A program made the translations under genes and the position numbers. Shown piece by piece: positions 29,466 through 59,683 of a stretch of DNA of 64,000 nucleotides. Below the pieces are notes generated by a model. That model made no database searches. It was not told the origin of the DNA and saw only the letters and a program-made list of their open reading frames with translations. Source of the DNA: Candidatus Aenigmatarchaeota archaeon (GTDB lineage Archaea; Aenigmatarchaeota; Aenigmatarchaeia; CG10238-14; SCSR01); NCBI GenBank assembly GCA_016198705.1, contig JACQIA010000002.1, forward strand, positions 1,521-65,520, given 5' to 3'. The first letter of the stretch is position 1; each line of letters begins with the position of its first letter.

Positions 29466-30032
29466 ATGTTACCATTTGTCGCTAAATTGCTAATGGGCGG
29501 ACAGCTTAGCTTTGAAAAAGGCAACTTATCTATCTTTGGGGAAAGAGTTTTAATTATACCTCTCGAACTGATACTTATTTTGGTTAGAGAATCATTAAAA
29601 GATAAAAAGCTGGCTAAATATGTTTATGAAAGTTCAAAACAATCTGTAATCGGGTTTTGTACAGATATACAAAAAAGATTGAAAGTCACCCAAAAGGAGA
29701 CATTGGATATTTTAATTAATCTAACAGAAATGAACGGCTACGGTGAAATCACCCCTATAAAGGTTGACTACAAAAATAAGGTTGCCATTTATCATTTGAA
29801 AGGTCTCCCTTCGAAGGCATTTTTCGGTAAAATGAAAGTAAAGAAAAATACAACAGTAGACGTCTACTGGTGCGGATTAGTGGCTGGTGGCATGTCATTT
29901 GTCTTTTCAGAAGATATAGATTGCATAGAAACTAGATGTATCATAACTGGTAAAGATTCTTGTGAAATTGTAGCTGCAAGAAAAGAATTTTTGAAAAAAA
30001 TTTATCCGAAAGCTAAAAAATATTTTGCTTAA
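29466..30032 (+). CDS. V4R (4-vinyl reductase) domain protein
   Basis: C-terminal Cys pattern WCGLVAGGMSFVFSEDIDCIETRCIITGKDSCEIV typical of V4R; 188 aa. Confidence 0.5.
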   Translation: MLPFVAKLLMGGQLSFEKGNLSIFGERVLIIPLELILILVRESLKDKKLAKYVYESSKQSVIGFCTDIQKRLKVTQKETLDILINLTEMNGYGEITPIKVDYKNKVAIYHLKGLPSKAFFGKMKVKKNTTVDVYWCGLVAGGMSFVFSEDIDCIETRCIITGKDSCEIVAARKEFLKKIYPKAKKYFA

Positions 30033-30034
30033 TT

Positions 30035-30733
30035 TCATTTCTTAATTGCCAATCCATTCTTCCCAATTTCTATAGGATAAATATCAGTCCCATGAGACGT
30101 CCTTCTCATCTTCCTTATAATTAGACTTCTTGGAGTTCCACCCGCTGCATACTCCAAATAATGCAAAACTATAACACTATCAGCGATAAATTCCTCAAAA
30201 CCAAATCTGCTTAAAGCCTTAACCTCAGCCTCCGGTATTTCTGTAATCAACAAAGATGTTATTCCTATGTTCTTCAATGCCTTCATATAACTCATGACTT
30301 CGCTTCTCACCTTTCCCATATCCAATGAAGAAACTTTCCATCCCATCGTAGCAATCGACAAACTATCCAGAACAAACCTTTTGGCATTTATTTTTTTAGC
30401 ATAATTAATCGTAGAAAATTGCAAAGTTTTTATATCCGTAGGCTCCTCTGCAATCAAAACAAACTTTCCTTGCTCTTTAGCTTTCTTAAATTCGACATCC
30501 CAGCCAAATTTTGCAACATCAGTCATGATATCCTCTTCGCTCTGCTCAAGCGTTATGTATATCCCACTCTCCCCCTTTCTTAATCCATGAAGTAAATATT
30601 GCATGCCAAATACAGTCTTTCCGGTACCAGTTTGTCCAGCCAATAAGTTCACAGAATTTTTGACAAGCCCTCCTTCAATTAACTTATCCAATCCTGGCAC
30701 ACCAGTTTCTAGGCGTTCAACGGCAGATGCCAT
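30035..30733 (-). CDS. KaiC-like RecA-superfamily ATPase (COG0467 type)
   Basis: GVPGLDKLIEGGLVKNSVNLLAGQTGTGKTVFGMQYL Walker A, 232 aa, single-domain KaiC/RadB-like architecture. Confidence 0.7.
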   Translation of the reverse strand: MASAVERLETGVPGLDKLIEGGLVKNSVNLLAGQTGTGKTVFGMQYLLHGLRKGESGIYITLEQSEEDIMTDVAKFGWDVEFKKAKEQGKFVLIAEEPTDIKTLQFSTINYAKKINAKRFVLDSLSIATMGWKVSSLDMGKVRSEVMSYMKALKNIGITSLLITEIPEAEVKALSRFGFEEFIADSVIVLHYLEYAAGGTPRSLIIRKMRRTSHGTDIYPIEIGKNGLAIKK

Positions 30734-30801
30734 AATGAATCTTAATTTCCCGCCAATATAATCCTTTGCATTATATAATATCTGGTGTGTAAATTTAATT
30801 T

Positions 30802-31194
30802 ATGAAAGGCCAAGCTGCTACTGAATTGCTAACACTCATCGGAATAAGCCTTCTAATAATTATCCCTCTTTTTTACTTTACTTTGCTCCATTCGTCGCAA
30901 TCCACTTCACAACTTCTCGCTACCGATGCAGTGAACACTATAGCCAATAATGCAGATTATTTGTATTCTCTAGGCAATCAATCAGCTACAACTGTAAATG
31001 TAAGGCTACCCGAAAATCTTGTTTCTGCTTCAGTCAAGGGCAAGGCTATAATTTTAAAACTAAGCACAAGTGCCGGAGTTACGGATGTTTTTGCAGTCAC
31101 AAAAGCCAATTTAACAGGGTCTTTGCCTGCTGCAAGCGGTAGCTATCTGATTAAATTGCAAAACATAAACAGCATGATAAACATATCCCGGTGA
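30802..31194 (+). CDS. Minor pilin-like protein 1 (class III signal peptide, KG|QAATE...)
   Basis: MKGQAATELLTLIGISLLIIIPLF: Lys-Gly, then Q at +1, E at +5 and a hydrophobic stretch, the archaeal EppA/Tad-type prepilin signature. Confidence 0.6.
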   Translation: MKGQAATELLTLIGISLLIIIPLFYFTLLHSSQSTSQLLATDAVNTIANNADYLYSLGNQSATTVNVRLPENLVSASVKGKAIILKLSTSAGVTDVFAVTKANLTGSLPAASGSYLIKLQNINSMINISR

Positions 31195-31198
31195 ATGG

Positions 31199-31612
31199 AT
31201 GAAGGGACAGAGTTCTTTTGAAATGATTATGATGACAGCAATAGTATTGGGAGTTTTCCTGTTTGCTTTGGTTTGGTATTTTACCAACAATGCAGATATT
31301 AGCAAATCATCTAAAATCTTGAAAGCAAGAGGCTTGTGCTCAGAAATAACGGATATCATAAATAGCGTGTCATCCGCAGGCAATAATGCCAAAGCAAGTT
31401 TTACTCTGCCCTCAAGTTTAGAGTCTTCGAAATACAACTTGACAATCTTTGCACAAACAAAAGTGGTATACACTTCAGTAAACAATGTAAGCATCTACTG
31501 TTCGATATTAACGCCAAATGTAACTAACGGCACACATTCTAATTTTAGCTTGAAAGCAGGCGATTATAACGCCAAAAATATCTTTGGGGTGGTGAACATT
31601 AATGCGAAATAG
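31199..31612 (+). CDS. Minor pilin-like protein 2 (KG|QSSFE...)
   Basis: MKGQSSFEMIMMTAIVLGVFLFALV. Confidence 0.6.
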   Translation: MKGQSSFEMIMMTAIVLGVFLFALVWYFTNNADISKSSKILKARGLCSEITDIINSVSSAGNNAKASFTLPSSLESSKYNLTIFAQTKVVYTSVNNVSIYCSILTPNVTNGTHSNFSLKAGDYNAKNIFGVVNINAK

Positions 31613-32108
31613 CGGACAGGTAATAACCATCGATTTTTTCGTTGCTGTAACAGCAATTACAATACTTATTGCTTTTGTTGTCCTAAGCTGGAACCAAGCT
31701 GTGGAAGAATTTAGGTCAAGAGAGATGCGCACAGAGATGACAGTATCAACAATAAATCTGGCTGATAGTTTGGTTAAATCTCAAGGAGATCCTAGTAGTT
31801 GGGAAAATATAAGTGAAATAAATAATATTAATTCTCTAGGCTTAGTTGTAGAAGACCATATACTTGATTCTAGCAAGCTCATAGCTTTTGTAGGCTTGGG
31901 GGAAAGCAATTTGAAGAAAATTTTAGGTATACAAAATTATAATTTTTACTTTAAAGTTTCTGATGGTAAAAAGACTGTCAATTTGGCTGATATAAAACTA
32001 GAAAATGGTTCTTATCCCAATTCATCCGCTTCAGCTGTAATAAATTCCCAAAGGATTGCACTTTTGAAAAATACACCAGTTTATTTGGATTTCGTACTTT
32101 GGCGATAA
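31602..32108 (+). CDS. Minor pilin-like protein 3
   Basis: MRNSGQVITIDFFVAVTAITILIAFVVL; overlaps the neighbouring pilin gene. Confidence 0.5.
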   Translation: MRNSGQVITIDFFVAVTAITILIAFVVLSWNQAVEEFRSREMRTEMTVSTINLADSLVKSQGDPSSWENISEINNINSLGLVVEDHILDSSKLIAFVGLGESNLKKILGIQNYNFYFKVSDGKKTVNLADIKLENGSYPNSSASAVINSQRIALLKNTPVYLDFVLWR

Positions 32109-32542
32109 TTATGAAGGGGATTATATTTACCACCGATGCATTGCTAGCAACATTGGCATTTTTCATAATTTTAACTGCATCTTTTTACATCAAATCGCAA
32201 ACACAGGCTGACAATTTTGGAAATTTGCACCTTTCGAAGGCTGTAAATGACATATTGACTGTTTTAAATAAAAACAGGACATTGGAGACTGTTGACAAGA
32301 CTGTGATATCTGATATTTTAATCCAAGTTCTGCCTCCAAGCATGAACGCCTCTCTACGAGTACAATATTTCAAATGTTCGAATCAGCAATGCGACAGTTT
32401 TTCTTTAGACAAAGAATTCCTGATTAATAATTGCATAGGAAAATCATTTGAACCATCACTAGCAAAAACATCTTTCCTAACATTCGAAAGCAATCGTGTC
32501 AGTTATTTTGGATTAGCTGAATTAGGGGTTTGTTTATTATGA
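32099..32542 (+). CDS. Minor pilin-like protein 4
   Basis: MAIIMKGIIFTTDALLATLAFFIILTASF. Confidence 0.5.
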   Translation: MAIIMKGIIFTTDALLATLAFFIILTASFYIKSQTQADNFGNLHLSKAVNDILTVLNKNRTLETVDKTVISDILIQVLPPSMNASLRVQYFKCSNQQCDSFSLDKEFLINNCIGKSFEPSLAKTSFLTFESNRVSYFGLAELGVCLL

Positions 32543-33474
32543 AAGGATTGGTATTTACGATCACACTTATGTTTTTCGCAATTACATTGTTAACTTTTAC
32601 TTTTCTATATAAACAAAGTCTATCAGAATTTAACGGGCAAATCATCAAAAATTCTTTGATCGATAGAGTTTACTACAAATATCAATCCATACAAAATGAC
32701 CTTAGGCGTTTGCTTGGAGGAACAGTGAACGTCGGTGGAGTTAACGTTACGGTAGAGGAAAATAATAATTTAACTGTTGTAAATTTCACCGAAGTATTGC
32801 CCAGAAGGCCTGGCACTTCTGATTTTTCCAAAGATTTAGACAATTACGAAAAATTCGCAGAAGCAAAACTAAATGAGACAAATTTACTTATAGATTTGAA
32901 TGTTATAGATCTAAAATGTCTTCCTTTTATCATAGAACCTTATAACATTAGAATTATCCATATACCTGATACAGATTGTACACACGCATCTGCCCAAACC
33001 GAAGTTATAATAAACGCCTCTTCCAGTTGGCAGTACTTGAAAAACTACACCTTTATCTTTAGGCCAGATGGAAATATTGCGGGGGCAGATATAACAGGCT
33101 GGAGTGGTGGCGGTTGCAACAAACCTGGCTTGGGACTTAATATAATTTTCATCGGCAAGGACACAATCCGTGGACCATTCTCCACCACCACCAGCTATGA
33201 TAAAATTTGTAAATTTAACATGGACGAGATTGCGTGTCCTGGTGCCAGTAATAAAGGATACGTACATGTAGTCCACAACCAAAACTCTCAAGATGCTGAC
33301 AAAGGTATTATTGATATACAGGTCCATCCTAATTGTAATATAACATCAACAGTTTCGTTAAACCTAACAGACATTCCAGGTACGACTAGCGTAAGCCTGC
33401 CCACACAAATAATCAAAATTAAAGAGACCCTATACGAAATCGAAAAGAATGATACAATCTATATAAATAAATAG
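32530..33474 (+). CDS. Large pilin-like / pilus-associated protein 5 (314 aa)
   Basis: MFIMKGLVFTITLMFFAITLLTF N-terminus followed by a Cys-containing extracellular domain. Confidence 0.5.
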   Translation: MFIMKGLVFTITLMFFAITLLTFTFLYKQSLSEFNGQIIKNSLIDRVYYKYQSIQNDLRRLLGGTVNVGGVNVTVEENNNLTVVNFTEVLPRRPGTSDFSKDLDNYEKFAEAKLNETNLLIDLNVIDLKCLPFIIEPYNIRIIHIPDTDCTHASAQTEVIINASSSWQYLKNYTFIFRPDGNIAGADITGWSGGGCNKPGLGLNIIFIGKDTIRGPFSTTTSYDKICKFNMDEIACPGASNKGYVHVVHNQNSQDADKGIIDIQVHPNCNITSTVSLNLTDIPGTTSVSLPTQIIKIKETLYEIEKNDTIYINK

Positions 33475-33483
33475 GTAATTATC

Positions 33484-34200
33484 TTGAAAAAGAAGTTAAA
33501 AGCCAAAAAATCCCGCACGATTAAAGTAAAGGGAAAATCGCCAAAAACTAGGCATAGAAAAGTGAAATACAGGCGAAAGCAGCTAAAAATCATTAACATA
33601 ATGACTAAAAAAATTATAGTAGGAAACGACACGTCCAATCTTGCTGAGGTTGCACAAATTTTTATCGACAAGCACATATCTCATTTGCCAATAATGAAAG
33701 AAAATAAATTGGCAGGAATCATTAGTGTAGCAGATGTGCTTAAAGCCGCAAATGTTGCTGATTTATCAGAATTAGATGAGAATAAAATCAAACAATTGTC
33801 TGCAGTGAATACTTCAGATGTGATGAAAAAGCCCATCTGTGTTTACATCAACGCGCCGTTAATTAGAGCAAGGAAACTGATGAAAAAATACAATATAGGC
33901 AGCATACCAGTTCTAGATAAGGAGAAAAATTTGGTAGGGATAATCACAAAAACAGATTTGGTGCGAACCCTTTCCAAAATATTTATCGGTCGGCATATCC
34001 AAACCACTGTTGACGAACTGCTTAAAACTTTGGAAACTTTTGGTTCTATGCCTATAGACAAACTTGCTAGCATGCTTGGTGTAAAACCTGATTTGATAGA
34101 AGGATGGGGGAAAATTTTGGAAGAGCATAATATGGTAACAGTTGTTTACCCGACTTTTGGGAAACCTTACTTAAAAATAAATAAGAAGGAGCCGTCCTGA
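33484..34200 (+). CDS. CBS-pair protein with C-terminal winged-helix-like module shared with the next gene
   Basis: Two CBS motifs (HLPIMKENKLAGIISVADV; GSIPVLDKEKNLVGIITKTDL). The C-terminus LASMLGVKPDLIEGWGKILEEHNMV parallels the MinD-like gene's C-terminus. The true start may be the Met at about 33601. Confidence 0.55.
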   Translation: MKKKLKAKKSRTIKVKGKSPKTRHRKVKYRRKQLKIINIMTKKIIVGNDTSNLAEVAQIFIDKHISHLPIMKENKLAGIISVADVLKAANVADLSELDENKIKQLSAVNTSDVMKKPICVYINAPLIRARKLMKKYNIGSIPVLDKEKNLVGIITKTDLVRTLSKIFIGRHIQTTVDELLKTLETFGSMPIDKLASMLGVKPDLIEGWGKILEEHNMVTVVYPTFGKPYLKINKKEPS

Positions 34201-35207
34201 TGGCTAGATTTATCGGTGTGGTTTCAGGCAAGGGTGGTGTGGGCAAGACGACTGTCGTCTCCAATTTATCTTATGCCTTAAACGAGCTAGGACAAAGAGT
34301 CATAGCCGTTGACTGCAATGTCACCACGCCCCATCTTTCCAATTATATGCCAAACTTCAGCTGGCGTACCACTCTGAATGATGTGATGAAAAAGAAAGCC
34401 GATATCTTTTCAGCTCTGCATTACGCCAATGGCGTTTATGTCGTTCCAGCTTCTTTGAATTTAGCCGACTTGGTCGATGTTGATATAACCACTCTGCGAG
34501 AAACAGTGCAACCATTAGCAAATATAAACAGTTTAGTGCTCTTAGACTCGGCACCAGGCTTGGGTAAAGAGGCGCTATCAGTTTTGCATAGTTGCGAAGA
34601 AATTCTATTCGTTACAATACCACAAAAATCAGCGGTAAATGATATTTTACGTTGTGCGGAAGTTGCAGAAGAGATTGGTCTGAAGCGTCTGGGATTAGTT
34701 CTAAATATGTACAGAAAGAAAAAATACAATCTAGCACAGGAGGAGATTGAGGAAATTACAGGATTGAAGGTAATAGGAAATATATCCTTCGATGAAAAAG
34801 TCATCCAAGCTATTTCATCGAGATCACCGCTTGTAAAATCTTGGCCTGAGTCTAAGGTAAGTCAAGAATTCATGAAATTAGCAGCCAACCTAATAAACAT
34901 ACCATACAAAAGACAAGGGAAAATAAGTCGGATGATAAATAGATTGTTTCGACGAAATCAAGAATTAACAAGCCGCAATTACCCCATCCTGCATACTACA
35001 AACAAAGATTTAACAACAGCTGGCGATAAAATTCTTGATTTGCTTGCAGCCAATAAGAAAATGAAAATAAGTGAAGTCGCAGAAAAAGTTAACTTAAGTG
35101 AAGAAGAAATTTATAAATGGGGGAAAATTTTGGAGGAACAAAGGCTACTAAGTATGCAGCCATCAATTTTCGGAATTAAAAAATCTAAGTTGGTTTGGAA
35201 TGATTGA
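34200..35207 (+). CDS. MinD/ParA-family ATPase (CpaE/TadZ-like position in a pilus locus) with C-terminal wHTH-like module
   Basis: Deviant Walker A GKGGVGKTT; C-terminus ISEVAEKVNLSEEEIYKWGKILEEQRLL. Confidence 0.7.
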   Translation: MARFIGVVSGKGGVGKTTVVSNLSYALNELGQRVIAVDCNVTTPHLSNYMPNFSWRTTLNDVMKKKADIFSALHYANGVYVVPASLNLADLVDVDITTLRETVQPLANINSLVLLDSAPGLGKEALSVLHSCEEILFVTIPQKSAVNDILRCAEVAEEIGLKRLGLVLNMYRKKKYNLAQEEIEEITGLKVIGNISFDEKVIQAISSRSPLVKSWPESKVSQEFMKLAANLINIPYKRQGKISRMINRLFRRNQELTSRNYPILHTTNKDLTTAGDKILDLLAANKKMKISEVAEKVNLSEEEIYKWGKILEEQRLLSMQPSIFGIKKSKLVWND

Positions 35208-36726
35208 AAAAATATTGGCAAAATACACAATTGTTGTCGATAATGTAGCAGGCAGTATAGAGATAACAAAAAAAGGCGATGAACTTGTTCCTGTATATGA
35301 GCTTAAACTGCCCACCTTGGAAAAAGGCACTTTAGCACTTTTGGATAAGGTTAGAGAAATCTTGGTTGCGCATATACCTATAAAGGCTACTGAATTGCTC
35401 GATATAGCAACAGCAGAAAGCGTCAAAGAAAAAATTTACGCCAATGGACTTGAAATAATAAAGTCAGAACTGCCGACAGTAGACGAACAGATACAGAAGT
35501 ATCTAATAGGTTTGCTTATTCATGAAATGCTCGGTTTGGGGAAGTTGGAGATTCCATTAGGCGATGGCGAATTGGAGGAAATAGTAATCAACAGTGCAAA
35601 GGAACCGATTTGGGTATATCACAAAAAATTTGGCTGGCTTAAAACAAACATAGTAATTTCTTCTGAGGCAGAGATTGTAAATTACGCTGTAGCCATTGGT
35701 AGAAAAGTAGGTAGGCAGATCACAGTTCTAAATCCTTTGATGGATGCGCATCTTACCACTGGAGACAGGGTTAATGCAACTTTATTCCCAGTTTCTACTA
35801 GAGGAAATACACTAACCATAAGAAAATTTCGTCGTTCACCATGGACAATCACTGATTTTATAGAAAACAAGACTATTACTCCAGATGTAGCAGCTTTGCT
35901 TTGGCTTAGTATGCAGTATGAGATGAACATGATTGTCGCAGGTGGTACTGCCTCTGGCAAGACAAGCTTTCTAAATGTACTAACGCCGTTCATACCCCCT
36001 AACCACAGGATAATTACTATAGAAGATACACGCGAATTAACATTGCCTTCATTCTTACATTGGATACCGCTTACCACAAGAGAGCCGAACCCCGAAGGCA
36101 AAGGAGAGGTGACGATGTTGGATTTGCTAGTGAACAGTTTGCGCATGAGGCCGGATAGAATAATTTTGGGTGAAATAAGGAGATCAAGAGAAGCTGAAGT
36201 ATTATTTGAAGCAATGCACACCGGTCATTCAGTCTATGCTACCATCCATGCATATACAGCCGACCAGACTTACCGTAGGCTAGTTAACCCTCCTATAAAC
36301 GTGCCAGAAACCATGCTGGAGGCTTTGCATCTCATAACTGTCTGTTTCCGTGATAGAAGGCTGGGCATAAGAAGAGTTTTCCAGGTTGCTGAATTAGTCC
36401 CATCCGGAAGAGGTACTGGCGTATCAATGAATGTAATTTTCAGATGGAAGGCTGACAAGGATATTATCGAACAGCATGCCGAAAGTTACCGGTTGTTCGA
36501 AGAATTGCATATGCATACAGGCATGACTAATGCAGAAATTACCGATGACTTGAAGGACAAGGTCAAAATACTTGAGTGGCTGGTTAAAAATAAAGTGAAT
36601 ACAGTCGATTCAATAGGTAGAATAGTATCACAATATTATTCCGAGCCAGAAATTATTTTGGAATTGGTAAACAAGAAGAAAAAGCCTGGGCTTGGAGGAA
36701 AAAGCGCTAAAGGAATAGAAGCATGA
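35200..36726 (+). CDS. Type IV pilus assembly ATPase (TadA/FlaI/VirB11 family)
   Basis: Walker A GGTASGKTSFLN, TIEDTRE, Walker B/His box; 508 aa. Confidence 0.8.
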   Translation: MIEKILAKYTIVVDNVAGSIEITKKGDELVPVYELKLPTLEKGTLALLDKVREILVAHIPIKATELLDIATAESVKEKIYANGLEIIKSELPTVDEQIQKYLIGLLIHEMLGLGKLEIPLGDGELEEIVINSAKEPIWVYHKKFGWLKTNIVISSEAEIVNYAVAIGRKVGRQITVLNPLMDAHLTTGDRVNATLFPVSTRGNTLTIRKFRRSPWTITDFIENKTITPDVAALLWLSMQYEMNMIVAGGTASGKTSFLNVLTPFIPPNHRIITIEDTRELTLPSFLHWIPLTTREPNPEGKGEVTMLDLLVNSLRMRPDRIILGEIRRSREAEVLFEAMHTGHSVYATIHAYTADQTYRRLVNPPINVPETMLEALHLITVCFRDRRLGIRRVFQVAELVPSGRGTGVSMNVIFRWKADKDIIEQHAESYRLFEELHMHTGMTNAEITDDLKDKVKILEWLVKNKVNTVDSIGRIVSQYYSEPEIILELVNKKKKPGLGGKSAKGIEA

Positions 36727-37604
36727 TACCTTTTGTACCATTGCCTTTGGATAAAGCTGTAAAAGTTTCCCGTCCATTTATAGGTTTGTCAAATAAACTG
36801 CATGTTTTATTTCCCTATCTAGATACAAAACTTTCTCAGGCCAATATACCTGTAAAGGGTAAGGAATATCTTTCTGTGATTATTTTTTCAACATTCTTTT
36901 GGTTTGCTTTAACCGCAGGACTTCTGCTGACGTTGGGTCTATTTCTGAAAAATTTACCCCCCAACTTTACTGCCATAGCCCTTTTGGGGTCATCTGCAAT
37001 TTCTTTTATAGCATTCTTTTACATCAATTTTTATCCAAATGCTATAGTCATCCAGAAAACTAAGGATATAGACAAAAATTTACTTTTTGCACTGAGGCAT
37101 CTACTGATTCAAGTTAAGTCTGGAGTCCCTCTTTTTGAGTCTCTAGTATCTGTAGCCAAGGGAAATTACGGCTTGATTTCTGTCGAGTTTACCAAATCAA
37201 CAAAGAACATCGCCACTGGCATGTCCCAATCTGTGGCATTGGAAGAAATTGCCTATAAAAATCCTAGTCTCTACTTCCGTAGAACAATATGGCAATTAGT
37301 AAATTCTCTTAAAGCGGGGGCAGATATAGGAAACACACTAGAAGTTCTGGTGCAAAGCTTATCAAACGAGCAGAGGGTAGCTATTAGAAAGTACGGCTCT
37401 CAGTTGGGTCCTTTGGCATTGATGTACATGATGGTTGCTGTCATTATGCCGGCATTGGGTATTACATTTTTAATAATTTTTTCTTCTATATCTAGCCTAC
37501 AGGTTTCCGAAATAGTTTTCTATATGATTCTTGGATTTTTGGTTATTTTTCAACTCGCCTACTCGGGACTGATTAAAAACAATCGACCATCGGTGGAATT
37601 ATGA
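36723..37604 (+). CDS. TadB/TadC-like pilus platform membrane protein (first half)
   Basis: Polytopic membrane protein in the FlaJ/TadC position, overlapping the ATPase by 4 nt. Confidence 0.55.
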   Translation: MIPFVPLPLDKAVKVSRPFIGLSNKLHVLFPYLDTKLSQANIPVKGKEYLSVIIFSTFFWFALTAGLLLTLGLFLKNLPPNFTAIALLGSSAISFIAFFYINFYPNAIVIQKTKDIDKNLLFALRHLLIQVKSGVPLFESLVSVAKGNYGLISVEFTKSTKNIATGMSQSVALEEIAYKNPSLYFRRTIWQLVNSLKAGADIGNTLEVLVQSLSNEQRVAIRKYGSQLGPLALMYMMVAVIMPALGITFLIIFSSISSLQVSEIVFYMILGFLVIFQLAYSGLIKNNRPSVEL

Positions 37605-38581
37605 GAATATCATTTAGAATAGTAAGCCAATTGGCCCCTCAAAGCTACAAGAAATGGGTAGAAGAAAATTTGCGATATGCAGGCTTTTCTATAAGCCCTT
37701 GGAAATTCGTAGGTCTGATGGTTTTATACGGTTTCTCAGTAGCTCTGGCATTGGCAACGATTTTGTATGTTTTTGACTACCATTTAATATGGGTTCTTGC
37801 AGGATGGATAGCAGGTTTTATATCAATTTTCGCCATTTTTAACAGTATCCTTATCATAGTCGTCGACAATCGTGCTAGATTTGTAGAAGATATGTTGCCA
37901 GATGTGTTGCAACTTATGGCTGCCAACATGCGTTCTGGCTTTGCACCTGAACGTGCCTTGCTTTTATCGGCACGGCCAGAATTCGGTTTCCTGGAGACAG
38001 AAATCAAGAATGCATCAAAAGAATTATTTTCCGGCGCAAATATAGAAGATGCTTTGGGAGGAATTGCACGCAAAATTAATTCCAAGATACTGTCCACTAC
38101 AGTAAAACTTATTGTCGAAGGCATCAAAAAAGGAGGGGAACTTACTAAATTGCTGGAGCAAACTGCAGAAGATGTGAGAAATACAAGGATACTTAAAAAA
38201 GAAATCACAGCGCAAGTAACAGTATACGCCATTTTCATCTTTTTTGCCACTTCAATAGGTGCGCCATTTCTATATGGCATTTCCACTTTTTTGGCAGAAA
38301 CTATGGCTCATATAGGTAAGCAGATAGACATCGGAGACGCAGCATTGCCACAAACATCATTTATAAGTTTGAATAAGGTAAGCATAGACCCAGTCTTTCT
38401 AAGCAACTATTCATTGGCCGCGCTTGCAATAACGTCGATATTCGGAGGGATAATCATTGGTTTAATTCTAGAAGGTTCTGAAAAGGTTGGGATAAAGTAT
38501 ATCCCCGTTATGCTAGTGATAAGCATGCTGATATTCTTTGCAGCCAGATCAGTAATATCCCAAGTTATTATCATCTTTTAA
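37601..38581 (+). CDS. TadC/FlaJ-like pilus platform membrane protein (second half)
   Basis: Polytopic; together with the preceding gene it resembles a FlaJ split into two genes, as in bacterial TadB and TadC. Confidence 0.55.
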   Translation: MRISFRIVSQLAPQSYKKWVEENLRYAGFSISPWKFVGLMVLYGFSVALALATILYVFDYHLIWVLAGWIAGFISIFAIFNSILIIVVDNRARFVEDMLPDVLQLMAANMRSGFAPERALLLSARPEFGFLETEIKNASKELFSGANIEDALGGIARKINSKILSTTVKLIVEGIKKGGELTKLLEQTAEDVRNTRILKKEITAQVTVYAIFIFFATSIGAPFLYGISTFLAETMAHIGKQIDIGDAALPQTSFISLNKVSIDPVFLSNYSLAALAITSIFGGIIIGLILEGSEKVGIKYIPVMLVISMLIFFAARSVISQVIIIF

Positions 38582-38614
38582 TAGGAAAGCTTTTTAAAGT
38601 GGAAATTAAATATA

Positions 38615-39025
38615 ATGAATAGGAGAAATTTAATGAAGATGAAAAAAGCACAATCGGCAATGGAATACCTGATGACTTACGGCTGGGCTATATTGATAGT
38701 CATCGTGGTAGTTGCAGCTTTGTATGCTTTAGGTGTTTTCCAAGTTGGTGGGCAAGGAGTGACATGCAGTCCATGTTTCAGCAATTTTGCTTACGTTGAC
38801 TATTCTGCAGGGACTCTGTTGATTCGTAACGGTCCTCAGGACATTAGCAGCGTATCAGTTGCATCTGTCCCTGTTGGGGCAACAACAGCAGCAACATCAG
38901 CGACACCTGGTCAAGATATAACAATCACAGCTGTACCAACAACTGGAAATCCTGTGGTAACTGTTACTTATACAGTAACTGCCTCAGGTTTATCGCATAC
39001 AGACACAGCAACAATGCATAACTAG
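38615..39025 (+). CDS. Major type IV pilin candidate (archaeal DUF361-type class III signal)
   Basis: KKAQSAMEYLMTYGWAILIVIVVVAAL is the classic QxxxEYLxxYGWAI archaeal pilin motif. The mature part is Thr/Val/Ala-rich, and a strong hairpin follows the gene. Confidence 0.75.
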   Translation: MNRRNLMKMKKAQSAMEYLMTYGWAILIVIVVVAALYALGVFQVGGQGVTCSPCFSNFAYVDYSAGTLLIRNGPQDISSVSVASVPVGATTAATSATPGQDITITAVPTTGNPVVTVTYTVTASGLSHTDTATMHN

Positions 39026-39059
39026 AAATCGCGAAATTTTCATTTTTTTTGATTTCTAG
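39022..39059 (+). terminator. Stem-loop (9-bp stem CTAGAAATC/GATTTCTAG, T-rich loop) overlapping the pilin stop codon
   Basis: Read directly from the sequence; it is followed by further T-runs. Confidence 0.35.
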
Positions 39060-39172
39060 TGATTATTGCTTCTAATTTTTAGAAGATTTTTGGTAAATTA
39101 GTATACCTTCTTCCTTCTTTCCCACAGCCAAACAATTATGTCAAAATAACCCTTGCCTGCTAAACAACAATT

Positions 39173-39661
39173 TCATACATTTCTCAGCGCACACTCTACC
39201 GGTGGCTGCAGCATTAACCCACATAAGGAATTTATTATTTCAGTCTCCGTAACATTCATCCCCTGCAAAGTCTTTTCTCCAACTCTTATTTGATTACTAT
39301 CTGTAACAAACCCTATAATGTTCACTTTAGGTAAATTCGAAGAAGTTGATTTTATCTCCTCCACAAAAATTTGATTCTCGAACTGCTTTAGATTTACAAG
39401 CTGCCCTAATATATTTTGTGTTTCCAAACACTTCTCGCAAGTCAAATTATATTCGAATCTTATGATAACCTTGCCCTGTTGCAATATAGCATTTTCTTGT
39501 TGCGGCGTCAGCTCACCATCTACTACTTTACTATCAGGTACTTCTGTTTTTTGCGGGATTGAAGGATTATAAAAAGCTGCCTGCAGTACATAAGGGACTA
39601 TAGAAAAGCCACCTACAAGCATGAACAATACCAATATAAGCAGTGCAGATTTGACCTTCAT
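39173..39661 (-). CDS. Exported thioredoxin-fold protein (CxxC)
   Basis: N-terminal signal/TM; CEKC motif with downstream pattern resembling small thioredoxin_3-like redox proteins; 162 aa. Confidence 0.35.
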   Translation of the reverse strand: MKVKSALLILVLFMLVGGFSIVPYVLQAAFYNPSIPQKTEVPDSKVVDGELTPQQENAILQQGKVIIRFEYNLTCEKCLETQNILGQLVNLKQFENQIFVEEIKSTSSNLPKVNIIGFVTDSNQIRVGEKTLQGMNVTETEIINSLCGLMLQPPVECALRNV

Positions 39662-39701: not shown

Positions 39702-40499
39702 ATGGTATTAGAGAGATTAATTTCTATAAGCGACGCATTGAAGCATCCGGGGTGGATGTATATTATTGGCGGTGCTGTATCAGTACTGTGCCTTTTTATA
39801 TCATTTTTGATTTTCCCGCAATCAGTAGGATTGTTTACAACGTTTCTTATAACAATTGCGATGACACCCTTCATGGTAAGACTGATTACTTATGAGGAAG
39901 CTAGTACAGAGAAAGAAATTGAGGGCCATATAGAAGGGAATTTCTTTCAGAGGTACAGCAATGTTCTTTCAATATATTCAGCATTTTTTGCAGGCATGAT
40001 TACATTTCTCTCTATAGCTTTCTTGATTTTGCCAGACGTAACGGTTCAAAAACTATTTGAAGATCAGATAAAGGAAATAAATTTAATAAGGGGAAGTGTG
40101 ATTTTTGCCAGCACTTTTGAGAGAATAGTGGTTAATAACATAGGTGTCTTAATACTTTCTGTGATTCTTTCTTTCTTGTTTGGAGCAGGCGCTATATTCA
40201 TTCTGGCTTGGAATGCGTCTATATTATCTACTGCAATAGGCTTGACAGCAAAAAGTATAGGTGGCATCCACAGCTTGCCTATAGCAGTTTTGGTATATTT
40301 CCCCCACGGGAGTTTGGAAATTTTAGCCTATTTCATCGGGGCTATCGCCGGCGGTTTGGTTTCCGCAGCATTTACAAGAAAAGAGACGAGAATGTTCTGG
40401 CCAGTAGTAAAAGACGGCCTGATGCTTGTAGGAATAGCAATCGTCATTTTAATGGTTGCTGGGGTAATTGAAACGACCTCTATCGCCATATCAGGGTAG
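39702..40499 (+). CDS. SpoIIM-like (DUF95) membrane protein
   Basis: Polytopic; GAGAIFILAWNASIL and PHGSLEILAYFIGAIAGG are typical of DUF95. Confidence 0.5.
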   Translation: MVLERLISISDALKHPGWMYIIGGAVSVLCLFISFLIFPQSVGLFTTFLITIAMTPFMVRLITYEEASTEKEIEGHIEGNFFQRYSNVLSIYSAFFAGMITFLSIAFLILPDVTVQKLFEDQIKEINLIRGSVIFASTFERIVVNNIGVLILSVILSFLFGAGAIFILAWNASILSTAIGLTAKSIGGIHSLPIAVLVYFPHGSLEILAYFIGAIAGGLVSAAFTRKETRMFWPVVKDGLMLVGIAIVILMVAGVIETTSIAISG

Positions 40500-45890: not shown

Positions 45891-47540
45891 TTAATTTATC
45901 CTCAATACAGCTGTATTGCATGTGCTAGTTGTGCACATCTTTAAAGTATGAGTGCCTTTTGATAATTGATTGTATATCTTCATTGTTGCTATTTCGCCTG
46001 GGTTTATTTGGGAGCCTGTGTCGTAATTGGCTTTAATTTCTTGTGCTGTCAGCGCCCGATTGTAAATCCTCACTTCATCTAGTTGTCCATTAAATTTGTT
46101 GAAGCCCGCAGTAACCGACCCCATAGCAAGAGGAACCCCTACATCGGACTGACCAACTCCTGTTGGAGTGAGTACCTCATCGAGGGGGAGCACTACTCCG
46201 TTCTTATAGAGTATGGGATCATTACCAACCGAATCTTGGTTATAAACTACGGTATAGAATGCTGGCGTACCAACCTCAACCGGTTGATTAACTGTTATCC
46301 ATTGACCGGTTCCTGTAGTGAAGAGTTTGACAAGGGCTAGATCCCTAGCAGTACCCGCGAAAGCAGATGAAAAATAGATTCTCCATCCTACACCATCATC
46401 CTTTCCAAGGATATCCATGTTATTGGCTGGCGGTGCAGTAGCAGATGCCCAAAATTCTACTGTTCCTCCTCCAACGAAAATATTTTGGATACTAGAATGA
46501 TCCGTGACAGAAACTATATCATTCACTCCGTCAAAAGCTTTAGCAGCCCCGTATTTCCCCTTTACAATATTATGCCTATCATTAGCGTCATTATTAAAAT
46601 TATACCACGCTACACTTCTGCTAACAGGATATGTATAATTCATATCTTCTTGGATTTCTGATTGTGACAATGCTCTGTTGTAAATGCGCACTTCGTCGAT
46701 GGTGCCGTTAAAATAGCTGCCTGCGTTTCCACCGTCATCCCTTTTTCCTATGGTAGCTGTTGTGGCTATTGTATTGATGGCTACGCTGAAAGTTCCGCTC
46801 GCGGCTGAAACGCCATTCAGATAATAGTTCCAAGCGCTTCCCGAAAGGGTGAATGCGACGTGATTCCAACTGCCGTTAGTTGGAAGCTGTGAGCCAGAAA
46901 TAATTATGTTGTTTGCGCCATTTATTCCGTCAGTAAAGACATAAATATTTCCCCCCACAGTAGCGAATTGAAATATGAAGCTTTGAGCAGCGGCGGCAAC
47001 GTTATTGAGGGCGAACACTGTTCCACCGGGATTCAATTTGTTGGGCATAATCCACGCCTCGATAGTCCTGCTGGAAGCGCCTATCGGAAGGTCAGTTATG
47101 CTGCTTACGTTGACATAATCATCCACACCGTCAAACTGCAATGCATTCCCATACTGCCCGCTAGCAAATCCAGCCCCATTTATCGTCCCGTCATTAAAAG
47201 TCTCCCCATTGAATGTTCCTGTGTTTCCTTTACCAGAAGAATCTGTAGCAGTTATCCTATCCAATTCATCCATCTTCCAATACCCAACCGAAGAATTATC
47301 CTGCTTAGACATACGATAAACAGCATCACTCCCGTCTATCTTCACACTTCTAAAAGCAGTTATCGGCGCAGTCCCGTCATTGCTTATGGTAACAGTATCG
47401 CTGAACGCATCAACCACATAAAACACTTCAGCAGTCTTTGTAGTAAACACACCAGAAATATAAGTATAGCTGAATCCAAACAAGCCAATTGTGATTATCA
47501 GCACTAGTAAAGTAGCTATAATTGAGGAAATGCCTTTCAT
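45891..47540 (-). CDS. Pilin-signal surface protein with two LamG/ConA-like lectin domains (putative adhesin)
   Basis: N-terminus MKGISSIIATLLVLIITIGLFGFSY is a class III signal. The two LamG signatures are GNALQFDGVDDYVNV...IEAWI...NHVAFT...GTIDEVRIYNRALSQSEI and later GQLDEVRIYNRALTAQEI. Confidence 0.7.
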   Translation of the reverse strand: MKGISSIIATLLVLIITIGLFGFSYTYISGVFTTKTAEVFYVVDAFSDTVTISNDGTAPITAFRSVKIDGSDAVYRMSKQDNSSVGYWKMDELDRITATDSSGKGNTGTFNGETFNDGTINGAGFASGQYGNALQFDGVDDYVNVSSITDLPIGASSRTIEAWIMPNKLNPGGTVFALNNVAAAAQSFIFQFATVGGNIYVFTDGINGANNIIISGSQLPTNGSWNHVAFTLSGSAWNYYLNGVSAASGTFSVAINTIATTATIGKRDDGGNAGSYFNGTIDEVRIYNRALSQSEIQEDMNYTYPVSRSVAWYNFNNDANDRHNIVKGKYGAAKAFDGVNDIVSVTDHSSIQNIFVGGGTVEFWASATAPPANNMDILGKDDGVGWRIYFSSAFAGTARDLALVKLFTTGTGQWITVNQPVEVGTPAFYTVVYNQDSVGNDPILYKNGVVLPLDEVLTPTGVGQSDVGVPLAMGSVTAGFNKFNGQLDEVRIYNRALTAQEIKANYDTGSQINPGEIATMKIYNQLSKGTHTLKMCTTSTCNTAVLRIN

Positions 47541-47668: not shown

Positions 47669-48436
47669 ATGTCACGAACAATAGGTATTCTCGCTGGAAA
47701 AGGTGGCGTCGGAAAGACTACTCTAACAGCCAACTTAGGATATGCTTTAACTGAACTAGGCAATAAAGTAACACTTGTCGATGCAAATCTTACAACACCG
47801 CATCTGGGGTTTCATCTAGGCATGCATTTAGTTCCAAAAACTTTGCATGACGTATTGCGCGGATATACTTCTGTAAGAAATGCAACTTATGTTCATCCTT
47901 TGGGGTTTAAAGTAATTCCAGGCAGCATTTCTGTCAAGGATTTGGTTAATGTAGACATAGCAAAACTTTCAAATGTGACATCCCATCTTTCAGACAAGTC
48001 AGATTTTATTTTACTGGATTGTGCACCATCTTTGGGCAGGGAAGCTATTACAGCGCTGCAAGCTACAGATGAAGTGCTTATAGTGACAAATCCAGACTTG
48101 CCATCGGTTGCAGACGCTTTGAAGACATTGAAATTTGCACAAAAAACTGGAAAAATATTTTCAGGTGCTGTTTTGAACAGAGTTAAATGGGGCTCTGGTG
48201 AATTGAAGAAATCAGAAGTAGAGGAAATTCTTGGCTCGCGTATCATAGCAGAAATACCAGAAGATAAAAATGTACCAAAATCTATCGCAGCTAAAACTCC
48301 TGTCTTAGACTTTTCCACAAATTCTCCAGCCTCAACTGAGATTAGAAGATTAGCGCATCATTTAGTTGGCAAAGAATACAATATAAGAACAAACTATGGT
48401 TTTCTTGACTGGCTAGTTGGGTGGATGACTAAATAG
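47669..48436 (+). CDS. minD: MinD/ParA-family ATPase
   Basis: AGKGGVGKTTLTANLG deviant Walker A; 255 aa. Confidence 0.7.
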   Translation: MSRTIGILAGKGGVGKTTLTANLGYALTELGNKVTLVDANLTTPHLGFHLGMHLVPKTLHDVLRGYTSVRNATYVHPLGFKVIPGSISVKDLVNVDIAKLSNVTSHLSDKSDFILLDCAPSLGREAITALQATDEVLIVTNPDLPSVADALKTLKFAQKTGKIFSGAVLNRVKWGSGELKKSEVEEILGSRIIAEIPEDKNVPKSIAAKTPVLDFSTNSPASTEIRRLAHHLVGKEYNIRTNYGFLDWLVGWMTK

Positions 48437-53227: not shown

Positions 53228-54436
53228 GTGGACAAATTAAAAGAAATCAATCCAAAAATGGTACCAGAATGTAACATAGGTACTTTGGGACATGTAAGCC
53301 ATGGTAAAACAAGCTTAGTTGCGGCACTTACTGGTAAAATAACATTAACCCATTCAGAAGAATTGAAGCGTGGAATAACCATTCGCCTAGGTTATGCTGA
53401 TGCAACCATCTACCGATGTATAAAATGCAATAGGTATTCTACTACTAACAAATGCCCTTATTGTTTTTCTGATTCTGAAATAATTAGGACGATAAGTTTC
53501 GTAGATGCACCAGGGCATGAGACATTGATGGCAACAGTGCTGACAGGAGCAAGTTTGATGGATGGTGTATTATTCGTAATTGCAGCCAACGAAAAATGTC
53601 CCCAACTGCAGACAAAAGAGCATTTAGCTGTTTTAGAAATAGCAGAAATCAAAAATGCTATAATTATACAAAATAAGATTGATACGGTTTCAGAAGAAAG
53701 GGCTTTGAAAAGCTACGAAGAAATAAAAGATTTTGTAAGAGGAAGTATATTGGAAGAAGCGCCAATTATTCCTGTATCCGCCCAATACAAAACAAACATA
53801 GATGTGGTTTTGGAAGCAATGGAAAAATTTATTCCCACTCCCAATAGAGGAGAATCAAACGAGCCTAAAATGCTTGTTGCTAGAAGTTTTGACATAAACA
53901 AGCCAGGGGCAAAACCTGAAAAATTGGTCGGTGGAATACTTGGAGGGGCAATATTATCTAGTAAGTTTTCTGTAGGCGAAAAAGTAGAAATAAGACCGGG
54001 TGTGAAGATCGGGAATAAGTATCAACCGTTATTTGCAAAGATAGTTGGTTTGAAGAAGGCTGGAATAAATCTTGATGTTGCTGGCGCAGGTGGTCTTTTG
54101 GGCTTGATGACGACATTAGACCCGTCTTTAACAAAATCTGATTCTTTAGTTGGCAATGTCGTGGGTTTGCCAAATAAGATGCCAGAATCAAAAGAAACCA
54201 TCTCGCTTAAAATAACCTTTCTAAATAGGGCTGATGCGTCGAATGTTAAGGTAAATGAAATAATTTTAATTAATGTGGGGACTGCAAGGTCGGTTGGAAC
54301 TGTATCCAGTGTTAAGAAAGAAACTATAGAAATGAAGTTGAAAATACCGGTTTGCGTGGAAGAAAAAGAAAAGGTAGCAATATCCAGGCAGATAGATGGA
54401 AGATGGAGACTAGTAGGTTATGCTATTACAGCTTAA
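53228..54436 (+). CDS. eif2g: Translation initiation factor aIF-2 gamma
   Basis: GHVSHGKTSLVAALTG G1 motif and a Zn-knuckle (CIKCNRYSTTNKCPYC); 402 aa. Confidence 0.85.
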   Translation: MDKLKEINPKMVPECNIGTLGHVSHGKTSLVAALTGKITLTHSEELKRGITIRLGYADATIYRCIKCNRYSTTNKCPYCFSDSEIIRTISFVDAPGHETLMATVLTGASLMDGVLFVIAANEKCPQLQTKEHLAVLEIAEIKNAIIIQNKIDTVSEERALKSYEEIKDFVRGSILEEAPIIPVSAQYKTNIDVVLEAMEKFIPTPNRGESNEPKMLVARSFDINKPGAKPEKLVGGILGGAILSSKFSVGEKVEIRPGVKIGNKYQPLFAKIVGLKKAGINLDVAGAGGLLGLMTTLDPSLTKSDSLVGNVVGLPNKMPESKETISLKITFLNRADASNVKVNEIILINVGTARSVGTVSSVKKETIEMKLKIPVCVEEKEKVAISRQIDGRWRLVGYAITA

Positions 54437-54891
54437 GCAGCAACACCAGCAGTAGAACAAAATGCACTTCCAGTCACTGGTGAAGCCCCAGTTGCAGATG
54501 CTCTTAATCTATAGGTTCCAATTGTAGCAGCGTTTGGTCTATCTAAACCAACTGTAGTATCGGTATCAGCATCGTCAGGACAAGCTCCTGAAGTCCCAGG
54601 AGCTATGCTAGTTATGGAACAACTTCCTGCAGCAACACCAGCAGAATCTGTGGCACTTACTGTGACAGTACCACTTGGAGATGTACCTTCATTCCTAACA
54701 GTAATATCTATATCATCTCCAGCACACGTTGCATCAAGAATATCTAAAACCACACCAGTTCTCGAACTTACAACACCGCTAAGATAAGTATAAGCAAAAC
54801 CAGCCAAAGCTATAGTTATCACAAGCATCAAAAGAGTCGCTATTACGGTTGATATACCTTTTTTCATATTATCACTTTTTAAGTACTGCAA
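54433..54891 (-). CDS. Secreted pilin-like protein (archaeal class III signal, Gly/Ala/Thr/Ser-rich)
   Basis: KKGISTVIATLLMLVITIALAGFAYTY; the mature part is GATS-rich with Cys pairs. Confidence 0.6.
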   Translation of the reverse strand: MQYLKSDNMKKGISTVIATLLMLVITIALAGFAYTYLSGVVSSRTGVVLDILDATCAGDDIDITVRNEGTSPSGTVTVSATDSAGVAAGSCSITSIAPGTSGACPDDADTDTTVGLDRPNAATIGTYRLRASATGASPVTGSAFCSTAGVAA

Positions 54892-54894
54892 TCT

Positions 54895-55299
54895 TTATAC
54901 GCCTGCAGTCGAGCAAAATACTGTTCCACTAGCTGGCGCTGCTCCAGCTGCACTTACGCTTAATGAGTTAGTTCCTGTCCCTCCAATGGCTCGATTGGCC
55001 GTGCATTCACCAGAAAGTCCGGGATTTACAGATGCAATTGTACAAGAACCGGCAGCAGTAGTTCCATCAGGCTGTGTAGCCGATACAGTTATATCTCCAC
55101 TAGGTGCAGTTCCTTCATTCCTGACACCAACAGTTATTGAATCACCAACACAGCTTGATTTAATAAGACCCAAAACTACACCAGTTCTGGCAGTTGTAGT
55201 TCCTGTAATGTATGTATAAGCAAAACCTACCAATGCTATAGTTATCACAAGCATCAAAAGAGTCGCTATTACTGTAGAAACACCCTTTTTCATAAGCAT
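54895..55299 (-). CDS. Secreted pilin-like protein, tandem paralogue of the previous gene
   Basis: MKKGVSTVIATLLMLVITIALVGFAYTY; the signal peptide is near-identical to the neighbouring gene's. Confidence 0.6.
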   Translation of the reverse strand: MLMKKGVSTVIATLLMLVITIALVGFAYTYITGTTTARTGVVLGLIKSSCVGDSITVGVRNEGTAPSGDITVSATQPDGTTAAGSCTIASVNPGLSGECTANRAIGGTGTNSLSVSAAGAAPASGTVFCSTAGV

Positions 55300-59227: not shown

Positions 59228-59683
59228 ATGAAAGCTATCTCCCCATTAATAGCTGTAGTTTTGTTAGTAGGCTTTACAGTGGCTTTAGGCGGGATAGTAA
59301 TAACATGGCTATCCACCTTAGCATCAACACAGACAACTATAGTGAGCAGCGGAACTGAAAAGCAGGTGAAATGTGCAGCCTCATCGCTTGCTGTCATCGA
59401 AGTTCGATATCCCTCCGGCGCCGGGAATGGTTTTGTAAATGTGACAGTAAGATATGAGAGTGGTACAGAAATTTTATCTAACATTACAGCAGAAGTAGGT
59501 GCAAGGGGTTCACTTCAAGCCAATACTTCTACAGGAACCGTCAGTCCCGGAGAAACTAGAGTTATCCAAGTTTCGCCAGCCAATTACCCTCCCGAGTTAG
59601 TTTCTGCAAGAGGATTCTGTCAAAGCTCGGTTTCAGTGATTGGTGAATGTAAGTCAGGCCAGCCCTGCATGAAAGGCAGTTAA
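59228..59683 (+). CDS. Secreted pilin-like protein (class III signal), 151 aa
   Basis: MKAISPLIAVVLLVGFTVALGGIVITWL; C-terminal Cys pair. Confidence 0.55.
   Translation: MKAISPLIAVVLLVGFTVALGGIVITWLSTLASTQTTIVSSGTEKQVKCAASSLAVIEVRYPSGAGNGFVNVTVRYESGTEILSNITAEVGARGSLQANTSTGTVSPGETRVIQVSPANYPPELVSARGFCQSSVSVIGECKSGQPCMKGS

Follow-up and report, generated by a model that had tools for sequence, protein, structure and literature searches.

What kind of machine is encoded between positions 30035 and 39661 of the window, and where does it belong among the type IV filaments of archaea and bacteria? The window, by which we mean the whole 64-kb stretch of DNA analysed here, comes from a metagenome-assembled genome (MAG) of Aenigmatarchaeota, a lineage of DPANN archaea, and a preliminary description had read this part of it as a complete archaeal type IV pilus (T4P) locus of Tad/EppA type. 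We conclude with good confidence that the region is a T4P biogenesis locus and that its gene cassette is conserved across DPANN. The genes, their coordinates and their order were reproduced exactly in an open-reading-frame (ORF) listing covering 27-43 kb, and gene content, domain identities, pilin cleavage motifs and the conservation of both gene order and a split platform are directly observed. The earlier interpretation is partly supported: it is right in kind, yet what it describes is known biology, and the labels ‘complete’, ‘CpaE-like’ and ‘EppA-type’ were overstated. Throughout, domain calls come from Pfam and NCBIfam profile searches, solved-structure comparisons from sequence searches of the PDB, and conservation from scripted profile searches of 86 loci in total (the window plus L001-L085), the relatives being four neighbourhoods and 80 GTDB loci with 53-64% ATPase identity.

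Assembly ATPase and divided platform

Three consecutive plus-strand genes provide the core of the machine. The first (35200-36726) encodes a protein of 508 amino acids (aa) that belongs to the T2SSE/VirB11 superfamily (PF00437, 7.3e-33) and that we assign, from sequence comparison, as an archaeal pilus ATPase. Among solved structures it matches afGspE (Archaeoglobus fulgidus GspE, PDB 2OAP) at 8e-69, FlaI at 2e-59 and CpaF at 1e-50; it stays below the cutoffs of the archaeal FlaI equivalog model (292 bits, cutoff 550), the TadA-family model TIGR03819 (184 bits, cutoff 373) and the bindosome BasE model (141 bits, cutoff 1000). It has thousands of close homologs, the named ones from Aenigmatarchaeota. 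An archaellum was considered and rejected, given the FlaI score, the split platform, the absence of archaellin family matches and the scores of only 30-42 bits that the KaiC-like protein of the locus reaches on ArlH/FlaH models (cutoffs 194-215). A second ATPase/platform module is absent from the 64-kb window.

The next two genes each encode a platform protein with a single T2SSF domain, namely an N-half equivalent at 36723-37604 (293 aa; PF00482, 3.7e-17) and a C-half equivalent at 37601-38581 (326 aa; PF00482, 9.8e-14). The two ORFs correspond to the N and C halves of the single-gene platforms UpsF and ArlJ, the first aligning to residues 33-244 of UpsF (of 484) and the second to UpsF 267-437 and ArlJ 224-462, so that the platform is split in two genes as first described. 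PDB searches by sequence returned nothing useful for either protein. The halves are paralogs, 22% identical over the T2SSF domain, and their genes meet in an ATGA overlap that suggests translational coupling.

Could the division be an artefact, a single FlaJ gene broken by a frameshift or an error of assembly? The preliminary description had named a frameshift in advance as incompatible with its own reading, and the sequence does come from a MAG. Nevertheless, two genes of comparable size are arranged in this way in ~80 independent assemblies (53-97% ATPase identity), the junction is a canonical ATGA, and a complete T2SSF domain is present in each ORF. Because the two-gene form recurs in ~80 independent DPANN loci, a frameshift of a single FlaJ is ruled out, and an artefactual origin of the split or of other oddities in the locus is vanishingly improbable. 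The earlier wording, that two platform genes stand in place of a single FlaJ/TadC, is accurate as to the split; the rarity it implied is not borne out, as two tadC genes are already known in archaea (PMC4858521, PMC6668835).

The split platform is one element of a cassette with a recurring order (80+ loci), in which a block of minor-pilin genes, mp1-mp2-mp3 with or without mp4-mp5, is accompanied by genes for the ATPase, the N-half platform protein, the C-half platform protein and a pilin with Gln at +1 (Q+1), in that sequence. Cassettes of this kind are found in at least nine lineages: Aenigmatarchaeota, Micrarchaeota, Woesearchaeota, Pacearchaeota, Nanoarchaeota, Iainarchaeota, Altiarchaeota, Parvarchaeota and Nanohaloarchaeota. 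The minor-pilin block is co-directional in some loci, as in the window, and divergent in others, and in most of them the major-pilin gene follows the platform genes in conserved synteny. On every contig of sufficient length the platform is encoded by two genes (~290 and ~325 aa), and a fused ~600-aa gene was never seen. DPANN T4P islands with TadB/TadC have been illustrated previously (PMC6393860, Fig. 2A), and the present locus resembles the example in that figure in its ATPase, its TadB/TadC-type genes and its several ‘dark matter’ signal-peptide proteins predicted as pilins. The example is a brief one, and the series of pilin positions, the winged-helix-like module and the CBS and MinD fusions considered below are not described in it. 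The locus is an ordinary example of this known DPANN archaeal T4P cluster, split platform included.

In the window, gene boundaries are tight. The MinD and ATPase genes overlap by 8 nucleotides (nt), the mp2 and mp3 genes by 11 nt, and the ATPase/N-half, N-half/C-half and mp4/mp5 pairs by 4 nt each; a TATA-like element lies 5' of mp1. Because so many boundaries overlap by 4-11 nt, the sequence suggests that the plus-strand series from mp1 to the major pilin is a single operon.

The pilin series and its predicted processing

Six pilin-like proteins of the locus, all encoded on the plus strand, have a short basic leader, a Gly or Ala and then a hydrophobic helix of ~20 residues. With a slash marking the predicted cleavage site, mp1 (30802-31194; 130 aa) begins MKG/QAATELL and mp2 (31199-31612; 137 aa) begins MKG/QSSFEMI, both combining Q+1 with Glu at +5 (E+5); mp3 (31602-32108; 168 aa; MRNSG/QVITIDFF) has Q+1 and Asp at +6 (D+6), without E+5; mp4 (32111-32542; 143 aa from its ATG; MKG/IIFTTDALL) has a hydrophobic +1 residue and D+6; and mp5 (32539-33474; 311 aa from its ATG; MKG/LVFTITLM) has no acidic residue at +5 or +6. 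Cys residues number two in mp2, four in mp4 and six in mp5. Three minor pilins had been credited with a KG/Q...E signature, which mp1 and mp2 do carry and of which the third, mp3, is the Q+1/D+6 variant. For mp4 and mp5, the most likely start codons are the ATGs at 32111 and 32539, in preference to TTGs further upstream (32099 and 32530).

These N-termini follow gene position, each family keeping its own +1/+5/+6 pattern among orthologs from 20-55 loci per family. Orthologs of mp1 occur in 53 loci, and those with a recognisable cleavage site have Q+1 in 40/43 cases and E+5 in 41/43; for mp2, with orthologs in 51 loci, the corresponding values are 45/48 and 46/48. Among mp3 orthologs (44 loci), Q+1 and D+6 are each kept in 39 of 41, a hydrophobic +1 residue and D+6 are found in 22 of 23 mp4 orthologs, and the acidic residue is absent from the mp5 orthologs of 21 loci.

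The predicted major pilin is encoded downstream of the platform genes (38615-39025, plus strand) and has the N-terminus MKMKKA/QSAMEYLMTYGWAIL, with Q+1, E+5 and Tyr at +6. Its start is probably at 38633; the GenBank protein identical to it is 130 aa long. That entry (HY361_00265) and the one for the thioredoxin-like protein of the downstream flank (HY361_00270), both from a Candidatus Aenigmarchaeota MAG and both matching at 100% identity, are named ‘hypothetical proteins’. Orthologs are strongly constrained at the cleavage site: Q+1, E+5 and Tyr or Phe at +6 are each present in 53 of 54 (Tyr in 33), and the -1 residue, Ala in the window, is Gly in most. There are 1390 homologs, the named ones nearly all from Aenigmatarchaeota, and none has a Pfam domain. 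The mature protein would be ~124 aa long (ortholog median, 147 aa). An AlphaFold2 model (pLDDT 85) places a 36-residue helix at residues 3-38, followed by an immunoglobulin-like (Ig-like) beta sandwich; as modelled, this is the usual architecture of an archaeal type IV pilin, unlike that of a helix-only Flp or Epd pilin. A CSPC motif at residues 51-54, just past the transmembrane helix, occurs at the same site in L001, L002, L004, L007 and L008, is confined to the closest Aenigmatarchaeota relatives and is absent from other DPANN lineages.

At the mp4 position some relatives have a large pilin with a VWA domain, of 887 aa in L001 (4802-7465), 339 aa in L004 (6321-7340) and 874 aa in L005 (4425-7049); mp4 of the window, syntenic with these, is only 143 aa long and has no VWA domain. 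The VWA-bearing fourth minor pilin of the relatives is likely a tip adhesin. This bears on whether the machine builds an adhesive pilus at all, or instead a short pseudopilus for secretion, in the manner of a type II secretion system (T2SS) or bindosome, or for uptake or exchange of DNA. A set of one major and five minor pilin-like proteins resembles the T2SS pseudopilin and Com sets, there is one ATPase only and no obvious retraction ATPase was seen, and DPANN cells are host-dependent in their supply of metabolites and DNA precursors, all of which would suit such a device. However, we saw no secretin, no class III-signal substrate-binding proteins and no ComEC/CedA-like DNA-translocation genes in the locus, the BasE score of the ATPase is far below its cutoff, and the relatives' minor pilin is of adhesin type. 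We therefore consider a pseudopilus device improbable, and favour a T4P.

Six further pilin-like genes lie elsewhere in the window, at 5168-6877 (-), 45891-47540 (-), 54433-54867 (-), 54895-55299 (-), 59228-59683 (+) and 59727-60182 (+). Their products form a different N-terminal class, with K[GA]/[ILV]S..IA..LL N-termini and weak matches to Pfam Pilin_N. Two of the proteins stand out by their size: one, of 569 aa, carries a Peptidase_S74 (endosialidase chaperone) domain at its C-terminus, and the other, of 549 aa, has a Laminin_G_3/ConA-lectin domain. The remaining four genes form two tandem pairs encoding proteins of 134-151 aa. Because there is only one ATPase/platform module in the 64 kb, these six proteins may share the machine of the locus; sharing of one machine in trans by PilA-type pilins has been proposed for euryarchaea (PMC4858521).

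Several observations weigh against our interpretation of the locus as a T4P system. None of the six pilins encoded in it matches a curated Pfam or NCBIfam family above threshold, the weak hits being of mp2 to PF04021 (13.2 bits, cutoff 23.7) and of mp3, over its full length, to DUF7287 (1.4e-4). In a Foldseek comparison with the PDB, the major-pilin model matched no solved pilin significantly; generic beta sandwiches came top, and the best solved pilin was Natrinema PilA2 (E 0.04). A search of the 64-kb window for an A24 prepilin peptidase, by GxGD motif among polytopic ORFs and by Pfam on the candidates, found none, the candidates being TctA, H+-PPase and SpoIIM proteins instead, and a motif scan near the 86 related loci gave nothing credible, so that processing is assumed and ‘complete’ says more than the sequence shows. 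The six further pilins could themselves be substrates, so that the ‘major’ pilin in vivo may be a different protein. Finally, the assembly mechanism, processing, the tip complex, regulatory roles and adhesion are deduced from the genes.

Proposed regulators of the motor and the downstream flank

Between the minor pilins and the ATPase lie two plus-strand genes, for a CBS-pair protein (33484-34200; CBS, 6e-28) and an archaeal MinD-family ATPase (34200-35207; TIGR01969, 8.5e-56), each ending in a winged-helix-like module (residues ~172-230 and ~272-325, respectively). The MinD protein had been called CpaE-like, a label that its scores contradict: it reaches 35.8 bits on the CpaE-homolog model TIGR03815 (CpaE_hom_Actino; cutoff 154) and 189 bits on the TIGR01969 archaeal MinD model (cutoff 202). 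Its Walker A motif is of the deviant type and intact (GKGGVGKT). The best structural matches are MinD of Pyrococcus and Archaeoglobus (1ION, 1e-34), followed by FleN (5e-20), and no TadZ structure is among the PDB matches at 1e-8. A stand-alone archaeal MinD encoded at 47669-48436 (+) is above the TIGR01969 cutoff (241 bits), is 38% identical to the locus protein and outscores it on the CpaE-homolog model, with 58 bits. To judge from its sequence, the locus protein looks like a duplicated MinD that gained the winged-helix-like module, and a MinD domain at this position is confined to the window and to L002-L005, the loci most closely related to it.

The C-termini of the CBS and MinD proteins are homologous (BLASTP, 5e-6), and profile searches find this ~60-aa module, with the consensus ETxIDKLxxxIxxKGxIxxxxLAxxLxVxxxxIEEWAxILEEHxLIxxxYPxxGxPxL, in the gene directly upstream of the ATPase across the compared loci, a few of which lack it although the upstream sequence is present. 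Where it stands by itself the protein is 67-83 aa long; elsewhere it is joined to a CBS pair (19 loci), MinD, a KaiC/DUF7504-like region or membrane segments. No Pfam family is dedicated to the module, which draws sporadic weak winged-helix matches (MarR, HTH_24, TrmB, HVO_A0114), among them a MarR-like match of 5.7e-3 in the CBS protein. Because the module is present in 77/86 loci and the locus MinD is restricted to a subclade, we propose that it is the winged-helix-like module, and not MinD, that is the motor's conserved partner. The module may dock regulatory inputs onto the motor. We found no description of this module in DPANN pilus loci in the literature, our coverage of which was incomplete, hence its novelty is not proven. 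As listed, the CBS gene starts at a TTG, and its first 39 residues (33484-33600) form an extremely basic extension (KKKLKAKKSRTIKVKGKSPKTRHRKVKYRRKQLK). The real start may be an internal ATG near 33601, because the orthologs in L002 and L005 have no such extension.

On the other side of the minor-pilin block, a single-domain KaiC-like ATPase of 232 aa is encoded divergently from the pilin operon (30035-30733, minus strand; PF06745, 2.2e-53). It matches TIGR03880 (KaiC_arch_3) at 1.7e-44, below cutoff, and in 30/86 loci a KaiC gene is found no more than 12 kb from the ATPase gene. The KaiC-like ATPase probably helps to regulate the pilus motor, and both KaiC-like and MinD/FleN ATPases are T4P-associated regulators in archaea (PMC4858521). 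A V4R-domain protein (29466-30032, +; sub-threshold, 20.6 bits against a Pfam cutoff of 31) adjoins the KaiC-like gene; the two stand side by side in the window, L002 and L004, and in L031 V4R is present with KaiC not detected. The V4R-domain protein may act together with KaiC.

Two AT-rich hairpins with T-runs lie 3' of the major-pilin gene (39021-39091, plus strand), at 39021-39060 and 39069-39085, with a T8 run within the first loop and a T5 run after. RNA folding gave a minimum free energy of -22.2 kcal/mol and z = -3.75, and 0/200 shuffles were as stable, so that the terminator-like hairpin noted earlier is real, though AT-rich. A sigma-70/intrinsic-terminator consensus scan reported no hairpin here; that scan requires at least three G-C pairs, and these hairpins are AT-rich. 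Together with their T-runs they are the probable transcription stop of the pilin operon.

Convergent with that operon is a gene for a membrane-anchored or exported protein of 162 aa (39173-39661, minus strand), which in alignment shows an N-terminal hydrophobic anchor, a CEKC motif and two further invariant Cys residues. It has only 13 homologs, and PDB searches by sequence gave nothing useful. Its AlphaFold2 model (pLDDT 76, ~85-90 within the domain) supports a thioredoxin fold, with thioredoxins dominating the top 50 Foldseek matches in the PDB (E ~3e-5, prob 1.0), in keeping with the earlier description of an exported CxxC thioredoxin-fold protein. The further suggestion that this protein could oxidise Cys pairs of the pilins fares less well: only proximity favours it, the gene is convergent, and in relatives it is paired with a SpoIIM gene. 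Specifically, a SpoIIM-family gene (39702-40499, +) is paired divergently with the thioredoxin-fold gene in the window and in L004 (18110-19440), and the two genes are also adjacent in L008. In L004 the thioredoxin-fold gene is ~5 kb from the pilin gene; relative to that locus, the LeuRS-SpoIIM-thioredoxin block is inverted and KaiC lies on the opposite side of the pilus locus.

Placement among type IV systems

The top solved-structure match of the assembly ATPase, afGspE, is an enzyme that we take to be a clade 2 ATPase, and in this the locus is like euryarchaeal clade 2 T4P. A further likeness lies in the PilA-type (Pilin_N-like) pilins, whose genes lie in trans in other parts of the window. 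Clade 2, the clade of Haloferax PilB3/PilC3, also has the KaiC association, frequently two tadC genes, and a MinD that is usually encoded elsewhere (PMC4858521). Unlike clade 2 loci, the one studied here has its own Q+1/E+5 pilin set, not a set of PilA/arCOG02416 type, and no arCOG02911-type pilin was recognised in it with the profile libraries used.

Also close to the locus are the Epd (EppA-dependent) pili of Methanococcus maripaludis and archaeal clade 1. As in those systems, an assembly ATPase is accompanied by two single-T2SSF platform genes, two tadC genes being typical of the Epd-like clade 1 and frequent in clade 2 (PMC4858521, PMC6668835), by at least five minor pilin-like genes, and by a FleN/MinD-family ATPase encoded within the locus or close by. 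EppA substrates of M. maripaludis have Gly at -1, Gln at +1 and Glu at +5 (PMC3875500), and the predicted cleavage sites of mp1, mp2 and the major pilin precede a conserved Gln, with the Glu in place at +5. In other respects the locus departs from the Epd pattern. The Epd major pilin is ~62 aa long and stand-alone, whereas the one here is longer, has an Ig-like domain and is encoded in the operon; its Tyr or Phe at +6 is missing in M. maripaludis; signal peptides here are as short as 3 aa; the EppA gene (9-transmembrane A24 form) was not found in the locus or the 64-kb window; and the DUF361/Class_IIIsignal model (PF04021) has no significant match among the window pilin and 70 homologs, 8/71 of which hit it at E >= 0.3. 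The ‘EppA-type’ label thus draws on the Q+1/E+5 cleavage signature, and the major pilin that carries it here is not a ~60-aa Epd/Flp pilin. Moreover, fast evolution is described for clade 1 ATPases, and the ATPase here is highly conserved across the DPANN loci retrieved (53-64%).

A similar mixture emerges from comparison with bacterial Tad/Flp (type IVc) pili. The split platform (TadB/TadC analogues), a ParA/MinD-superfamily ATPase beside the motor ATPase, the clear homology of CpaF to that motor (1e-50) and a pilin N-terminus, G/xxAxEY, that resembles the Flp processing site with its Tyr6 (PMC10710030) are all shared. In sequence, DPANN major pilins appear to carry a partial Flp motif, xxAMEY (QSAMEY in the window), without Gly7. 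Unlike Tad/Flp systems, the locus has no secretin, TadD/G, RcpB/C or TadV; the gene order runs from the ATPase to the N-half and then the C-half; the pilin is not a 40-60-aa helix-only protein, and Pfam Flp_Fap does not match it; and the MinD protein is an archaeal paralog with a canonical deviant Walker A, not TadZ/CpaE.

Does the locus then belong specifically to an Epd/Tad lineage, in the clade ancestral to bacterial Tad, and not with generic or clade 2 T4P? Two single-T2SSF platform genes are a trait that unites Epd-like and Tad systems (Denise et al., PMC6668835), Q+1/E+5 prepilins recall EppA substrates (PMC3875500), and Tyr6, kept in all Tad pilins (PMC10710030) and missing from M. maripaludis pilins (PMC3875500), has its counterpart in the near-invariant Tyr or Phe and the partial Flp motif of the DPANN major pilins. 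The MinD/FleN-family ATPase of the operon belongs to a family (arCOG00589) reported as homologous to TadZ, and it is on that homology and on the split platform that the published derivation of Tad from Epd-like systems rests (PMC6668835); some homologs of the pilin are also labelled ‘UPF0333 family’ by JGI. However, clade 2 loci often have two tadC genes too (Makarova et al., PMC4858521), the locus MinD is lineage-specific and resembles CpaE no more than its housekeeping paralog does, the ATPase scores below the cutoff of the TadA-family model, and PF04021 has no significant match. The major pilin has a globular domain that short Epd and Flp pilins lack. Over its full length the ATPase is closer to FlaI and to afGspE, presumably of clade 2, than to CpaF. 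On balance, an Epd/Tad placement is tenable and less likely than not to be correct, and we prefer to describe the locus as a DPANN T4P cluster. The resemblance to Tad and Epd noted earlier is genuine for the split platform and for the G/Q...E(Y) pilins, traits already described for archaea (Makarova 2016; Denise 2019), as is the broader architecture of an ATPase, two TadC proteins, at least five minor pilins, a FleN/MinD ATPase and a KaiC association (PMC4858521). A bolder proposal, that the DPANN cassette is a distinct T4P lineage nearer to the Tad ancestor than Epd is, with an unrecognised cytoplasmic winged-helix-like component, is suggested because a split platform is combined with a Flp-like G/QxAMEY pilin N-terminus missing in Epd pilins; we regard it as unlikely.

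For the T4P machine that we favour, the following model can be drawn. Six prepilins, whose class III signal peptides are very short (from MKG/ to MKMKKA/), would enter the membrane and be trimmed by an A24 prepilin peptidase encoded elsewhere. A hexameric T2SSE-type ATPase could then dock on a heterodimeric platform of the N-half and C-half T2SSF proteins and drive the Q+1/E+5/Y+6 major pilin, with its long alpha-helix and Ig-like domain, into a helical filament. The five minor pilins, whose N-termini are graded from two of Q+1/E+5 type through one of Q+1/D+6 and one of hydrophobic+1/D+6 to one without an acidic residue, may form a priming or tip complex, which in relatives would carry the VWA adhesin. 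Meanwhile, cytoplasmic regulators could act on the motor, namely the CBS-pair protein and the MinD paralog, which bear the same winged-helix-like module, and the divergent KaiC-like ATPase. The likely role of such a pilus would be adhesion to surfaces or host cells.

More broadly, the locus adds one example of an Aenigmatarchaeota genome that retains a pilus assembly cassette, which is consistent with the use of type IV pili by DPANN archaea to contact surfaces or hosts. The five-minor-pilin series, the always-split platform, the Glu5-Tyr/Phe6 pair and the winged-helix-like module provide annotation handles for proteins that are mostly ‘hypothetical’ in GenBank. With DPANN taken into account, these conserved features could help to test whether Tad pili originated in archaea; they could also guide the choice of targets in the few DPANN co-cultures.

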